Shown here: positions 43,507 through 48,515 of the stretch, piece after piece | How the letters are laid out: each line of letters opens with the position of its first letter | How positions within the stretch are numbered: position 1 is the stretch's first letter | Source of the DNA: an uncultured Muribaculaceae bacterium | GTDB lineage: Bacteria > Bacteroidota > Bacteroidia > Bacteroidales > UBA932 | Length of the DNA stretch: 64,000 nt | Direction: 5' to 3' | Assembly (NCBI GenBank): GCA_964385795.1 | Contig: CAYLPY010000002.1 | Location: 47,079-111,078, forward strand | Program-made: the position numbers and the translations under genes | Notes under the pieces: model-generated | The model's database searches: none | Told to the model about the DNA's origin: nothing | Seen by the model: the letters and a program-made list of their open reading frames with translations, nothing else

Positions 43507-44733
43507 ATGAATTCAGAAGAATTGCGATCATTTTTTCCGCAGCTTTCCGAGCGCGTGTATGGCAAGCCGCTTGTCTATTTAGACAATGCTGCCACTACAA
43601 TGCGCCCTGTACAGGTCGTGCAAAAATGGGATGAGATGTCGCTGAAATTCAACTCAAACCTTCATCGCGCAGTTCACCATATCGCGGATCTTGCGACTGA
43701 GGAGTATGAGTCTTCGAGGACAGTAGTGGCTGACTTTATTGGTGCTGCTTCTGGAGACGAGATTGTATTCACCTCAGGTACCACAGCTTCCATCAATCTT
43801 GTGGCATATTCTTTCGGTGAAGCGTTCGTAGGTGAGGGCGACGAGATAATCGTTTCCGAATCCGAGCATCATTCCGATATCGTTCCATGGCAACTGCTTT
43901 GCGGGCGGAAGAAAGCTGTACTGCGAGTGCTTCCGGTCGATGACTACGGATGTCTCAGACTCGATGTGCTGAAGTCCCTCCTTTCGGAGAAGACAAAACT
44001 CGTATGCGTCGCTCACATTTCCAATGTGCTTGGACTGGTTAATCCGGTAAAGGAGATTGTAAATATTTGTCATTCAATTAATTGTCCTGTTCTTGTCGAT
44101 GGCGCTCAGGGAGTGGTTCACGAGTGCGTGGACGTATCTAGTCTGGACTGTGATTTTTATGCTTTCTCCGGGCACAAGATATATGCCTCACCCGGCACAG
44201 GAGTCCTTTACGGGAAGAAGAAGTGGCTTGATGCCATGCCGCCTTTCCTCGGGGGAGGTGAGATGATTGCTACGGTCTCCTGGGATGGCACGGCATACGC
44301 GGTTGCTCCGCATAAGTTCGAGGCGGGAACCCAGAACATCTCGGGGACTCCGACTTTTAAACCGGCCACTGAACTCATGAGACAGATGCGCTGCCCAGAA
44401 ATAGAGAGACAGACCGAAGAGATTTGCGACTATATTCTGAATATTCTTTCAAGTGATTGCAGGATAAAACTTTACGGTACTCCGTTCGGCGGATGCAGGA
44501 AGATACCTCTCTTTTCGTTCTCCGTGGAACATATCCATCACGAGGATCTCGCGCTCATTCTGGACAAGATGGGGGTGGCGGTCCGTTCGGGACAGATGTG
44601 TGCCGAGCCGCTGATGGACAGATTTGGAGTCACCGGCATGCTCAGGGCATCGTTCGCTCCGTACAATACACTTGACGAAGCGAAGTATTTCGTGGAATCA
44701 CTTGACAGGGCCATTAAAATGCTTGACAGATGA
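43507..44733 (+). CDS. sufS: Cysteine desulfurase SufS
   Basis: YLDNAAT, EHHSD, DGAQG, FSGHK (PLP Lys), EAGT, VRSGQMC. Confidence 0.95.
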   Translation: MNSEELRSFFPQLSERVYGKPLVYLDNAATTMRPVQVVQKWDEMSLKFNSNLHRAVHHIADLATEEYESSRTVVADFIGAASGDEIVFTSGTTASINLVAYSFGEAFVGEGDEIIVSESEHHSDIVPWQLLCGRKKAVLRVLPVDDYGCLRLDVLKSLLSEKTKLVCVAHISNVLGLVNPVKEIVNICHSINCPVLVDGAQGVVHECVDVSSLDCDFYAFSGHKIYASPGTGVLYGKKKWLDAMPPFLGGGEMIATVSWDGTAYAVAPHKFEAGTQNISGTPTFKPATELMRQMRCPEIERQTEEICDYILNILSSDCRIKLYGTPFGGCRKIPLFSFSVEHIHHEDLALILDKMGVAVRSGQMCAEPLMDRFGVTGMLRASFAPYNTLDEAKYFVESLDRAIKMLDR

Positions 44734-45152
44734 AGACATTGAAGGAAGCACAGGATGAACTTGTAGACGAACTGTCGATGTTCGACAACTGGTTGGACAA
44801 GTATGAATATCTTATAGATATGGGTAAGTCGCTTGATACTTTCCCAGAGGAGGCAAAGACTGAAGATTGTCTCATAAAAGGTTGCCAGTCAAGAGTATGG
44901 CTCGACTGGAAAGAGGTAGATGGGGCTCTTCAGTTCTGTGCGGACAGCGATGCTCTCATCACGAAGGGTATCATATCGCTTCTCGTCAGGGTGTATTCCG
45001 GAAGGACTGCCTGCGAGATAGCAGCTGACGATTTCTCTTTCGTCGAGAGACTCGGGCTCAAGGAGAACCTTTCCCCGACGAGAGCCAACGGACTTGCCTC
45101 GATGATAGCCACGATGCGACGCATCGCAAACGAAAACTGCAGCAGCAAATGA
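44730..45152 (+). CDS. sufE: Sulfur acceptor SufE
   Basis: KYEYLI..GK, IKGCQSRVW, DSDALI.KG, LSPTRANG. Confidence 0.95.
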   Translation: MKTLKEAQDELVDELSMFDNWLDKYEYLIDMGKSLDTFPEEAKTEDCLIKGCQSRVWLDWKEVDGALQFCADSDALITKGIISLLVRVYSGRTACEIAADDFSFVERLGLKENLSPTRANGLASMIATMRRIANENCSSK

Positions 45153-45523
45153 GTGACGAAAAAGACATTCTCACACCGGAAGACGTCAAGGAACTTGCAC
45201 CTCTCTATGAAGCGGTGGTCCTTGCGTTGAAGCAGGTGTACGATCCGGAGATACCTGTGAACATCTATGACCTCGGACTTATCTATGAACTCAACATAAG
45301 CAAGTCGCGTGATGTGCACATCAAGATGACTTTCACTGCGCCGAACTGCCCGATGGCCGACGAGGTTCTTGCGGAAGTGAAGCACAACGTCGAGATTACG
45401 CCAGGCATTAAGTCCTGCGCGATAGAACTTGTGTTTGAACCGGTGTGGGACAGGAGTATGCTTTCCGACGAGGCGCGGGTGGCTCTCGGCATGGATCCTG
45501 AGATGGACGATGATTTCGCTTGA
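45149..45523 (+). CDS. sufT: DUF59/SufT Fe-S assembly protein
   Basis: VYDPEIPVNIYDLGLIY, MTFTAPNCP, FEPVW. Confidence 0.9.
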   Translation: MSDEKDILTPEDVKELAPLYEAVVLALKQVYDPEIPVNIYDLGLIYELNISKSRDVHIKMTFTAPNCPMADEVLAEVKHNVEITPGIKSCAIELVFEPVWDRSMLSDEARVALGMDPEMDDDFA

Positions 45524-45947
45524 TGTTTATCTCTCCCTCGGTACCAACGAAGGCGACCGTCGTGCCAATATCGGCAGGGCTCTCGCTCTTCTCGATGAAA
45601 GGATGGGGGGAGCGAGGACTGCTCTTTCTTCCATTATCGAATCTAAGTCCTGGGGATTCGAGGGTGGGGATTTTCTGAACTGCGTGGCCTGCTACAGCAC
45701 CTCACTTGGGCCAGAGGAGATACTTTCGGTGTGCAAGGGCATAGAGAAGGAGATGGGCCGCCGCGAAGTCGTGGAATATGCTTCGGACGGAAGCCGTATC
45801 TATCACAACAGAATCATAGACATAGATATTCTCCTGTACGGAGACATGACCGTCGACACGCCTTTCCTTAAGATTCCTCATCCACTGATGAAGGAAAGGG
45901 ATTTCATTATGCGGCCGCTACTGGAAATATTGGGCGAAAAAGCGTAA
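45510..45947 (+). CDS. folK: 2-amino-4-hydroxy-6-hydroxymethyldihydropteridine diphosphokinase
   Basis: YLSLGTNEGDR, FLN, IE..MGR, RIIDIDILLY, IPHP...RDF; start at ATG 45510 inferred. Confidence 0.93.
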   Translation: MISLDVYLSLGTNEGDRRANIGRALALLDERMGGARTALSSIIESKSWGFEGGDFLNCVACYSTSLGPEEILSVCKGIEKEMGRREVVEYASDGSRIYHNRIIDIDILLYGDMTVDTPFLKIPHPLMKERDFIMRPLLEILGEKA

Positions 45948-45993: not shown

Positions 45994-47532
45994 ATGACAC
46001 AAGAAGAATTGTTCAAGGTTCTCGTTGCCCACTGCAAGGAGTACGGGTTCATCTTTCCATCGAGCGACATCTACGACGGTCTTGCCGCCGTGTATGACTA
46101 CGGCCAGATGGGCGTGGAACTTAAAAACAACATCAAGCAATATTGGTGGAACGCGATGACTCGTCTCAACGAGAACATCGTCGGCATCGACGCCTGTATA
46201 TTCATGCACCCGAAGACCTGGGTTGCATCCGGTCACGTGGCAGCGTTCAACGACCCACTCATCGACAACAAGGACTCCAAGAAAAGATACCGTGCCGATG
46301 TCCTGATTGAGGACTATCTCTGCAAGATTGAGGAGAAAATCAATAAGGAAGTCGAGAAAGGCCGCCGCAAATTCGGAGAGTCCTTCGATGAGGCGAAGTT
46401 CCGCGAGACCAATCCGAACGTTCTTCGCGAGAAAGCTCGCTATGAGCAGGTTCACAACCGCTATGTGGCAGCCGAGCAGGCCAATGACCTCAAGGAATAC
46501 AAGCAGATTATCATGGACTGTGGCATCGTATGTCCGATCAGCGGCACCTGCAACTGGACGGATGTGAGACAGTTCAACCTCATGTTCTCTACACAGTTCG
46601 GCTCCGTGGGAGACGAGTCCAATACCATCTATCTCCGTCCTGAGACTGCGCAGGGCATCTTTGTGGACTACATCAACGTCCAGAAGACCGGCAGGATGAA
46701 GATTCCTTTCGGTATTGCGCAGATAGGCAAGGCCTTCCGCAACGAAGTTGTGGCGCGTCAGTTCATCTTCAGAATGAGGGAGTTCGAGCAGATGGAGATG
46801 GAGTTCTTCGTCCGCCCTGGGACTGAGATGGAGTGGTTCAAAAAGTGGAAGGAGAATCGCATGAAATGGCATACCAACCTCGGAATGGGGGAGGAGAACT
46901 ACCGTTTTCACGATCATGAGAAGCTCGCGCACTATGCTAACGCCGCTACGGACATAGAGTTCAACTTCCCATTCGGCTTCAAGGAACTCGAAGGTATCCA
47001 CAGCAGGACCGACTTCGATCTCGGCAACCATCAGAAAATCTCCGGCAAGAAGCTCCAGTACTTCGACCCTGAGACCAACGAAAGCTATGTGCCTTACTGC
47101 GTGGAGACTTCCATTGGCGTGGACCGTATGTTCCTCGCAGTGCTGAGCCACTCCTACAAGGTCGAGACTCTCGAAAACGGCGAGACCCGCACCGTGCTCA
47201 GCCTTCCTGCGCCTCTCGCGCCGGTCAAGGCGGCAGTCCTCCCCCTCGTGAAGAAGGACGGTCTTCCAGAGTTCGCGCAGAATGTTATGGACGAGCTTAA
47301 ATATGACTTCAATTGCCAGTACGACGAGAAAGACAGTATAGGCAAGAGATACCGCCGTCAGGATGCTCTCGGAACTCCGTACTGCATCACGGTCGACCAC
47401 GATTCTCTCGTGGACAACTGCGTCACCGTCCGTGACCGCGACACGATGCAGCAGGAGAGAGTGCCTGTGGCAGAGCTCCGCAGCCTGATTGACAAGAGAG
47501 TCAACCTCAACAACCTGCTGAGGAACCTCTAA
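45994..47532 (+). CDS. glyQS: Glycyl-tRNA synthetase, homodimeric type
   Basis: YDYG..G..LK.N, YLRPETAQG, GKAFRNE, FIFRMREFEQME, HYA..A.DIEF, GKRYRRQD. Confidence 0.97.
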   Translation: MTQEELFKVLVAHCKEYGFIFPSSDIYDGLAAVYDYGQMGVELKNNIKQYWWNAMTRLNENIVGIDACIFMHPKTWVASGHVAAFNDPLIDNKDSKKRYRADVLIEDYLCKIEEKINKEVEKGRRKFGESFDEAKFRETNPNVLREKARYEQVHNRYVAAEQANDLKEYKQIIMDCGIVCPISGTCNWTDVRQFNLMFSTQFGSVGDESNTIYLRPETAQGIFVDYINVQKTGRMKIPFGIAQIGKAFRNEVVARQFIFRMREFEQMEMEFFVRPGTEMEWFKKWKENRMKWHTNLGMGEENYRFHDHEKLAHYANAATDIEFNFPFGFKELEGIHSRTDFDLGNHQKISGKKLQYFDPETNESYVPYCVETSIGVDRMFLAVLSHSYKVETLENGETRTVLSLPAPLAPVKAAVLPLVKKDGLPEFAQNVMDELKYDFNCQYDEKDSIGKRYRRQDALGTPYCITVDHDSLVDNCVTVRDRDTMQQERVPVAELRSLIDKRVNLNNLLRNL

Positions 47533-48515
47533 TGGCGCAGACTTTTTCTGAGCTTGGCCGTGTGGAAGCCATACGGCAGCTTTTTGAAGGCAGCGGATAC
47601 ACTCCTTTCGGGGAGCCTCTGCGCAGTGCTGCGGAAGCAGGGGAAAGTGTCTTTGCATCGAGGCTTTTCCTCGAGGGGACGGATTTCAGTCTCGTCTACT
47701 TCCCACTTAAGCATCTCGGCTACAAATGCGTCGTGGCTGTAACAGGGGAGCTTTATGCCTCGATGGCCCATACGAGAACTCTTTCCGTAGTGCTCGGTAT
47801 CTCGGCGAAGCTCGACTACGAGCAGATTTCCGAGCTCTGGGAGGGTGTCGTCACTGCGGCTCACGAGCACGGCTACGCTTCTCTCTCTCTGGATCTGGTC
47901 CCGTCGCGCAACGGACTTGCTATAAGCGTTTCGGCGACTGGTCTATCCGCGACTGTGGAGCGCGGCAGGCCGGAGAGCAAGGATCTCCTCTGCGTGTCGG
48001 GCAGTCTCGGTGCTGCCTATCTCGGACAGCAAGCTCTCGAACATGAGAGAAAGGACCTCGAGACATACAAGATGCTTGTGAAGGCCTATCTTAAGCCTGA
48101 ATTAAGCCCTGGAACGGTTACGCAGGCGGTGAGTGGTGGAATTATACCTTCGTACTCTTATCTTGTCTCCAGGGGGCTTTCTGATGCTGTTTTGAGGCTG
48201 CGTAGGGACAGTGGCCTCGGCGTAAAGATATATGCTGACAAAATTCCGTTCGAGGGCAACAGTTTCGCACTCGGAAAAGAACTCGATATTGACCCTGTCT
48301 CCGCCGCGATGAACGGAGGGGATGATTTCCGGTTACTTTTCGTGGTGCCGATAGCTCGCTACGAAGATTTAAGGCGTGAGTTCGGCGGTTTCGACATAAT
48401 CGGGCATCTTGCCCGTCCGGAGGTGGGAGCAGTGCTTGTTACTCCAGACGGACTGGAGCATCGCATCTCGGCGCAGGGCTGGCAAGAAGAGGAGCAGAAG
48501 CCTCTGTTTTCATAG
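47532..48515 (+). CDS. ThiL (thiamine-monophosphate kinase)-like protein with degenerate active site
   Basis: Scaffold motifs YFPLKHLGYK, LCVSGSLGAAYLG, LKPE, AMNGGDDF.LLF.VP, AQGW retained; GDD, TD, NxSD and DxSDG acidic residues lost. Confidence 0.8.
   Translation: MAQTFSELGRVEAIRQLFEGSGYTPFGEPLRSAAEAGESVFASRLFLEGTDFSLVYFPLKHLGYKCVVAVTGELYASMAHTRTLSVVLGISAKLDYEQISELWEGVVTAAHEHGYASLSLDLVPSRNGLAISVSATGLSATVERGRPESKDLLCVSGSLGAAYLGQQALEHERKDLETYKMLVKAYLKPELSPGTVTQAVSGGIIPSYSYLVSRGLSDAVLRLRRDSGLGVKIYADKIPFEGNSFALGKELDIDPVSAAMNGGDDFRLLFVVPIARYEDLRREFGGFDIIGHLARPEVGAVLVTPDGLEHRISAQGWQEEEQKPLFS

Follow-up and report, generated by a model that had tools for sequence, protein, structure and literature searches.

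Thiamine-phosphate kinase, ThiL (EC 2.7.4.16; TIGR01379), which phosphorylates thiamine monophosphate (TMP) in an ATP/Mg-dependent reaction that yields thiamine pyrophosphate (TPP), is the closest described relative of the gene considered in this study, an open reading frame (ORF) that we call pseudo-ThiL. This ORF lies in a 64,000-nucleotide stretch of contig CAYLPY010000002.1 (positions 47,079 to 111,078, forward strand; assembly GCA_964385795.1, an uncultured Muribaculaceae bacterium placed in UBA932), referred to below as the window, and the genome it comes from is 1.65 Mb in size and 97.5% complete. The active site of ThiL lies within the dimer interface, and its I-G-D-D loop binds the ribose-phosphate of the nucleotide (PMC6416309). 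In PaThiL, the Pseudomonas aeruginosa enzyme, D30, D47, D75 and D211 are strictly conserved metal ligands, Mg1 is held by D122, adenine and ribose are contacted by T123 and by the G28 and G121 backbone, D214 in the conserved loop S213-D214-G215-L216 bridges to the TMP phosphate, and H54 and Y189 hydrogen-bond TMP (PMC13254938). Pseudo-ThiL resembles the ThiLs of known structure (AaThiL 3C9T, AbThiL 5DD7 and PaThiL 8YKU) in its two-domain PurM-type fold, similar length and orthology, and it keeps the PLKHLGYK, LGAAYxG, LKPE, NGGDD..LF and AQGW motifs. Unlike them, it falls under the family cut-off, is without the D30, D47, D75 and D211 metal ligands, and has no equivalents of D214, of the nucleotide contacts G121 and T123 or of the TMP contact H54. 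We consider it probable that pseudo-ThiL is the native Bacteroidales-type ThiL of UBA932 (Candidatus Cryptobacteroides), which has lost the residues for ATP/Mg phosphorylation and is now a non-catalytic pseudoenzyme.

The motif changes were judged by alignment to active ThiLs from its own genome and from others of its genus, family and order. The ThiL scaffold motifs are kept, including PLKHLGYK (residues 58-65), CVSGSLGAAYLG (154-165), LKPE (187-190), NGGDDFRLLF (261-270) and AQGW (314-317), and every scaffold motif named in the original prediction, which was made from the sequence alone, is present. Within this scaffold GEF has become GRV, TD has become SR (R44), N-x-SD has become VTGE (E73), GGD(T) has become SLD(L) with D121 kept, DISDG has become LVSRG, and the His of EGxHF is replaced by D51. 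All the ligand substitutions that the prediction had listed hold against active ThiLs, but its statement that GDDAA is deleted needs correction, since the GDD loop is swapped for a non-conserved stretch about 6-8 residues shorter and is not cleanly deleted. Read from PaThiL to pseudo-ThiL, the D30 loop is lost, D47 corresponds to R44, H54 to D51, D75 to E73, G121-D122-T123 to L120-D121-L122, D211 to L211, D214 to R214, D219 to A219 and H222 to R222. S213 is kept, and the S-D-G-L loop reads S213-R214-G215-L216. A conserved tyrosine, Y186, stands near the position of PaThiL Y189, an equivalence that is uncertain from the alignment. The PurM Dx4GAxP-type ATP motif is likewise absent from pseudo-ThiL, its Asp being R44, with G49 kept.

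To place this gene among its relatives, three types of thiL gene are distinguished here. Type A is the degenerate form, to which the window ORF belongs, with 58-78% identity among copies of the same genus; type B is the 'Bacteroidales-type' ThiL, which has all catalytic motifs, has PLKHLGYK, LGAAYxG, LKPE and AQGW in common with type A, and is 31-39% identical to the window ORF; type C is a distantly related canonical ThiL with 20-25% identity to the window ORF. The related loci come from metagenome-assembled genomes of human, chicken, horse and ruminant guts, whose titles read Candidatus Cryptobacteroides or 'Bacteroidales bacterium'. In a maximum-likelihood tree of 87 sequences, with support values from the Shimodaira-Hasegawa-like approximate likelihood ratio test (SH-aLRT), type A is monophyletic (support 100) and falls inside UBA932's own B-type ThiL clade (support 98), where partly degenerate B forms are its sister group; type C forms a separate clade (support 100). 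The branching order within type A tracks the genera. Because type A is nested in the native clade and branches by genera, pseudo-ThiL is the vertically inherited native ThiL ortholog of UBA932 and no new paralog. A survey of 61 UBA932 genomes from 35 genera found type A in 38 (36 of them verified by sequence), a partly degenerate B form in nine, an active B form in 12 and no ThiL in two. Of 151 Bacteroidales genomes, drawn from about 139 families, 147 have a ThiL that scores above the cut-off, and the degeneration is therefore specific to particular lineages.

The degenerate motif pattern recurs in 47 of the 47 clade members sampled, which represent at least 21 genera, and in all 80 same-genus loci; such a pattern is far beyond chance. 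Fifty-three alignment columns are invariant in both active ThiL lineages, and clade A keeps 24 of them and changes 29. The kept columns are mostly Gly or Pro, together with K65, D121, S125, D151 and D265. Clade A has also fixed new states of its own, namely D51, G72 and Y186 (98% each), L120, L122 and G209 (91% each) and F211 (87%), the window copy having L211 at the last of these positions. Lys or Arg occupies positions 44 and 214 in most clade members, as read by eye from the motif table, D121 is kept in 79% of the clade, and E73 is conserved in just 66%.

Pseudo-ThiL scores 112.7 bits (E = 1.7e-32; 112.2 bits in the genome scan) with the NCBIfam thiL model TIGR01379, below the curated cut-off of 184.15, and a Pfam search gives a sub-threshold match of the N-terminal domain to AIRS (PF00586; 22.8 bits against a gathering threshold of 24) and no match to AIRS_C. 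The nearest solved relatives by sequence are the ThiLs of Aquifex and Acinetobacter (E about 1e-9). An AlphaFold2 model built from a 44-sequence alignment has a mean predicted local distance difference test score (pLDDT) of 90.6 and a predicted template modelling score (pTM) of 0.90, and in a Foldseek search of the PDB ranks 1-16 are all ThiL chains (8yks, 8yku, 3c9t, 5cm7 and others; E about 1e-23, TM-score 0.72-0.84, with 0.74-0.84 for the four entries named, about 21% identity), followed by HypE, SelD, PurL and PurM. The predicted structure thus keeps the complete two-domain PurM/ThiL architecture. Public records label some clade-A members 'thiamine-phosphate kinase'. Full-text literature searches returned no description of a degenerate, pseudo or paralogous ThiL, and the curated family libraries hold no description of a ThiL-derived pseudoenzyme.

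Loss of catalytic residues in a genome with a redundant TPP route is also what plain pseudogenisation would produce, that is, a redundant ThiL gene that is simply decaying, and the original prediction had named frameshifts and neutral evolution in relatives as its signs. Neither is seen. All 80 of the Cryptobacteroides loci examined carry full-length ORFs of 317-344 amino acids with no stop, and the median ratio of nonsynonymous to synonymous substitution rates (dN/dS, Nei-Gojobori) is 0.13 for the 357 pairs whose dS lies between 0.05 and 1.5, the closest pairs giving 0.02-0.17. Pairwise omega is 0.03-0.11 for type A, 0.03-0.075 for active type B and 0.11-0.25 for canonical type C. When the same pairs of genomes are compared, the A copies are 72, 69, 65 and 60% identical, versus 59, 57.5, 63 and 49% for the canonical C copies. 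Purifying selection on type A is as strong as that on active ThiL, in agreement with the earlier view that the intact ORF reflects selection and not decay. The intact ORFs, the low dN/dS, the retention of type A in at least 21 genera whose genomes are reduced to 1.5-2.5 Mb, the new residues conserved at more than 90% and the confident predicted fold together exclude plain pseudogenisation, to which we give next to no credence. With its predicted fold kept, its key catalytic residues gone and its sequence held by purifying selection, pseudo-ThiL would qualify as a pseudoenzyme in the operational sense.

A second important line of evidence concerns the source of TPP. The earlier suggestion to look for a second, canonical thiL in the same genome proved fruitful, as a C-type thiL with every motif intact is found on contig C6 (C6:2317-3252; 309.6 bits), its product being 23% identical to pseudo-ThiL. 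Thiamine pyrophosphokinase (TPK; TIGR01378) is present in 28 of 28 genomes that carry type A without a canonical ThiL (A-only genomes) and in nine of nine genomes with partly degenerate forms, in contrast to just one of the ten genomes that carry both A and C types (Fisher p = 6e-8). In seven of these ten genomes the C-type thiL adjoins thiE. Eighteen clade-A genomes have thiE, and nine of these have a C-type ThiL, nine have TPK and none has type A alone. Across the clade, 0 of 38 genomes are without both TPK and canonical ThiL. No clade-A genome depends on its A copy for TPP, which clearly differs from the situation of ThiL itself and is the strongest indirect argument that the A copy is not a working TMP kinase.

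The co-occurrence of both proteins in the window's genome and nine others, together with the location of ThiL active sites at a dimer interface with residues from both chains, raises the question of whether pseudo-ThiL is a 'prozyme'-like or poison subunit that heterodimerises with the canonical C-type ThiL and modulates it. Dead-paralog activators of this kind are known, such as the trypanosomatid AdoMetDC prozyme and DHS (PMC5201418, PMC3663545), and like pseudo-ThiL they are inactive enzyme homologs conserved under selection. These proteins, however, arose by duplication and act only with an active paralog, whereas pseudo-ThiL is the original ortholog and is mostly found without an active ThiL of either type. 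Indeed, 28 of the 38 genomes have pseudo-ThiL without any canonical ThiL, which rules out a heterodimer with canonical ThiL as its main role, and an identity of 23% between the two proteins makes a conserved heterodimer unlikely. We regard this explanation as very improbable. Another instructive case is PurL (FGAM synthetase; StPurL and TmPurL structures), in which a degenerate PurM-fold half with a structural ADP site has lost catalysis and is kept as a structural or ligand-binding element. Pseudo-ThiL is similar in that a PurM-fold module is kept after losing catalysis, but the dead module of PurL is joined in one chain to an active module, with which it pairs, while pseudo-ThiL stands alone, usually without any active ThiL.

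The main rival to a non-catalytic role is that pseudo-ThiL has remained an enzyme: it could be a kinase of TMP or thiamine that works by a metal-independent or non-canonical mechanism, or the catalyst of a new reaction, for example a TMP hydrolysis feeding TPK. Strong purifying selection is what such an enzyme would show, and the kept D121, D265, K65 and S125 and the newly conserved D51 and Y186 could serve it. Pathway gaps offer it a place as well. In the nine A-only genomes with thiE, TMP has to be turned into TPP in some way. A TPP riboswitch (72 bits) precedes the genes for a TonB-dependent receptor (OMthi-like) and pnuT (C3:49041-52033) in the window's own genome, which also has the canonical thiL; it has no thiE and no TPK, including in tblastn searches with same-genus TPKs, leaving the conversion of imported thiamine to TMP unaccounted for and without a candidate enzyme. 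Several observations weigh against the non-catalytic reading that we prefer. D121, D264/D265, K65 and S125 are still present; the former active site is partly variable (positions 44, 73, 213, 214 and 222), which fits relaxation of the site equally well as a new site; conversion of TMP to TPP in the nine A-only genomes with thiE needs either a phosphatase plus TPK or pseudo-ThiL itself; and among the clade loci no conserved neighbour or fusion indicates a specific new function. Moreover, kinases defined as 'dead' by their sequence have proved to be metal-independent enzymes, as in the case of CASK. Pseudo-ThiL resembles CASK-type pseudokinases in that acidic metal ligands have given way to other residues, some of them basic, and in that 'dead' is a call based on sequence. 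It differs from them in having a PurM fold rather than a protein kinase fold and in the change of its nucleotide-contact Gly and Thr to Leu. Against an enzymatic role, none of the four strictly conserved metal-ligand Asp residues remains (Glu stands in for one), conserved Leu takes the place of both the ribose-contact Gly and the adenine-contact Thr, variable sequence fills the position of the IGDD loop, and 0 of 38 genomes rely on pseudo-ThiL alone, each having TPK or canonical ThiL. To our knowledge, no PurM-superfamily enzyme works without the Asp cluster. We consider a surviving or new enzymatic activity unlikely, and favour metal-independent ligand binding or a structural role of the dimer.

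Among the surveyed genomes with a C-type thiL, the organization of the thiamine genes shows some peculiarities. The C-type thiL adjoining thiE in one genome (G089:C88:11162-12421) matches the ThiL model in three pieces within one 438-codon frame with no internal stops, giving 239 bits summed over the pieces, and extra sequence seems to interrupt the match. In four others (G056:C17, G067:C9, G081:C13 and G048:C8), thiE lies in frames of 438-446 amino acids adjoining a C-type thiL; these frames of about 440 amino acids are probably ThiD-ThiE or similar fusions in a compact thi operon.

Based on these comparisons, we suggest that pseudo-ThiL has a non-catalytic, ligand-binding or structural role. 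A vertically inherited ThiL has lost the residues for ATP/Mg-dependent TMP phosphorylation and kept its fold, and TPP formation in these genomes is covered by TPK or by a second, distantly related canonical ThiL, usually encoded beside thiE. The former ATP site may be occluded by the conserved hydrophobic residues L120, L122 and F/L211, the acidic Mg cluster may be partly charge-reversed by Lys or Arg at positions 44 and 214, and the thiamine-side pocket may be remodelled to a new conserved state that includes D51 and Y186. The likeliest action of such a protein would be to bind a thiamine-related or other anionic ligand without a metal, or to serve as a structural element or partner by way of the PurM-type dimer. 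The idea of a repurposed non-catalytic PurM-fold protein, first put forward in the original prediction, is thus well supported within the reach of sequence, structure prediction and comparative genomics.

Forms that stand between active and degenerate ThiL are also found. Nine genomes of the family (loci L066-L074 in G055, G058, G060, G063, G065, G080, G083, G085 and G088) carry intermediate ThiLs that score 156-246 bits with TIGR01379, some of which retain GDD or the His of EGxHF yet are without the SD, GGD or DISDG motifs. All nine genomes have TPK, and these genes look like snapshots of a stepwise catalytic loss. A wider tree, for which representatives were clustered at a 50% identity level, places 14 degenerate B-type relatives in a second clade, outside the UBA932 family clade. 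One of them, P0136 (L176/L177:4001-4996, GCA_034659275.1), follows lpxD-lpxC/fabZ-lpxA in a genome that further has a C-type thiL adjoining thiM/thiD; the others are P0133, P0142, P0144, P0153, P0159, P0169, P0170, P0188, P0192, P0205, P0207, P0233 and P0238. A genuine, partly degenerate ThiL copy is present as well in a small-genome member of another family (G119). Two further candidates were discarded, since the sub-threshold ThiL of G183 is merely a fragment at a contig end, and the sub-threshold hits of G029 are a HypE-like protein (PRIC tail) and another AIR-synthase relative, not ThiL. The retention of a dead B-type ThiL in separate lineages hints at a role of the scaffold that is independent of kinase activity, and this recurrence suggests that such a function may already have been present in the Bacteroidales ThiL scaffold beforehand. 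It is possible, and we propose it only tentatively, that the scaffold has a second, kinase-independent function, for instance as a sensor or sink for thiamine, TMP or TPP or as a structural partner in another process, and that this function alone was preserved by selection in UBA932 and, separately, in one or more other lineages once TPK or a second ThiL had taken over TPP synthesis.

These findings have practical as well as biological implications. The prediction of vitamin B1 phenotypes from genomes uses a ThiL/ThiN signature (PMC6593275). Predictions that count ThiL would credit the TPP-forming step to a protein that is very probably unable to perform it, and, judging from record titles, UBA932/RC9-group bacteria are found in rumen, chicken, horse and human gut samples. 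The family also offers a natural experiment, in which an ortholog and not a duplicate has lost catalysis yet stayed under selection over family-level divergence, at least twice. That such an ortholog is kept by selection points to a second function of this textbook cofactor enzyme that has gone unrecognised, and the way in which TPK and C-type ThiL complement each other suggests an order of events in the rewiring of the pathway. If the kinase-independent function is true, the PurM superfamily would have in pseudo-ThiL its first stand-alone pseudoenzyme, and the vitamin B1 homeostasis of gut and rumen Bacteroidales would have a new player.

Table 1. Features of pseudo-ThiL and its upstream neighbour in the window.
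Feature	Position	Strand	Basis or remark
pseudo-ThiL ORF, 327 amino acids plus stop	47532..48515	+	degenerate ortholog of Bacteroidales-type thiamine-phosphate kinase; ORF list, TIGR01379, AlphaFold2, Foldseek, tree
glyQS, glycyl-tRNA synthetase, 512 amino acids	45994..47532	+	upstream co-directional neighbour of pseudo-ThiL; no conserved pair
TAATG junction	47530..47534	+	glyQS stop TAA (47530-47532) and pseudo-ThiL ATG (47532-47534) overlap by one base
Residues 19-40, variable shortened loop replacing I-G-D-D (PaThiL G28-D29-D30)	47586..47651	+	alignments; pLDDT 79
Residues 43-52, SRLFLEGTDF: R44 for metal-ligand Asp (D47), D51 for TMP-contacting His (H54)	47658..47687	+
Residues 70-73, VTGE for N-x-S-D; E73 at PaThiL D75	47739..47750	+
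Residues 119-122, SLDL for GGDT; ribose-contact Gly and adenine-contact Thr changed to Leu	47886..47897	+
Residues 211-215, LVSRG for D-I-S-D-G	48162..48176	+	S213 kept, D211 to L, D214 to R
Residues 261-270, NGGDDFRLLF, C-domain motif retained (active ThiL: GGEDYELLF)	48312..48341	+	G262, G263 and D265 invariant

The pseudo-ThiL frame has no internal stop, and its start is backed by the N-termini of relatives (MAQTF, MAETF, MAEKTF and similar). The predicted overlap of the glyQS stop with this start is present (...CTC TAATG GCG...), and the nearest relatives have TGATG or TAATG junctions at the same point. Such an overlap could be taken to mean that pseudo-ThiL is a dedicated partner or regulator of GlyRS, kept at a fixed ratio through translational coupling; a translationally coupled GlyRS partner was one option of the original prediction. 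Synteny speaks against it. The glyQS product is 83-90% identical in close relatives (L005-L007). The gene lies directly upstream of pseudo-ThiL in only 29 of 80 genus loci and six of 47 family loci, where it is part of a sufS-sufE-sufT-folK-glyQS block, and only one sub-clade within the genus has the junction. In the other loci pseudo-ThiL and sufB are divergently oriented, pseudo-ThiL having a TAnnTTTG box of its own, and the protein is equally conserved with or without glyQS linkage. Given how few loci have this linkage, the TAATG overlap seems to reflect only co-transcription in one sub-clade and no GlyRS partnership, and we find the latter hardly credible.

The order found across the family is sufC(-) - PnuC-family gene(-) - sufB(-) <> thiL-like(+) - dnaE(-). 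The divergent spacer between sufB and the thiL-like gene is about 38-70 bp in most loci and has back-to-back TAnnTTTG boxes; TAnnTTTG is the Bacteroides -7 promoter consensus. Active B-type ThiL is likewise divergent from sufB in three other families (L016-L018), a position that pseudo-ThiL thus shares with ThiL of some other Bacteroidales, and the sufB linkage is therefore ancestral. Rfam searches of the window and of 20 related loci gave no RNA family, and therefore no TPP riboswitch controls pseudo-ThiL.

The PnuC-family transporter gene (PF04973, 136.9 bits) between sufB and sufC is found in 19 clade-A and two partly degenerate loci, including L031, L032, L034, L038 and L040-L042, and in the window's own genome at C2:4139-4807. 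The encoded protein is only about 25-32% identical to the riboswitch-linked pnuT product. We considered this transporter as a partner of the catalytic loss and found no tie, as active ThiL genes of other families are linked to sufB too; the link is further weakened by the active-ThiL loci of UBA932, most of which sit in other contexts. In the window itself, the region directly 5' of glyQS (43507-45947) encodes sufS, sufE (PF02657), a DUF59/SufT-like FeS_assembly_P protein (PF01883) and folK (HPPK, PF01288), with ends that overlap or abut. With a TTG start, folK would share about 95 nucleotides with the SufT-like gene.

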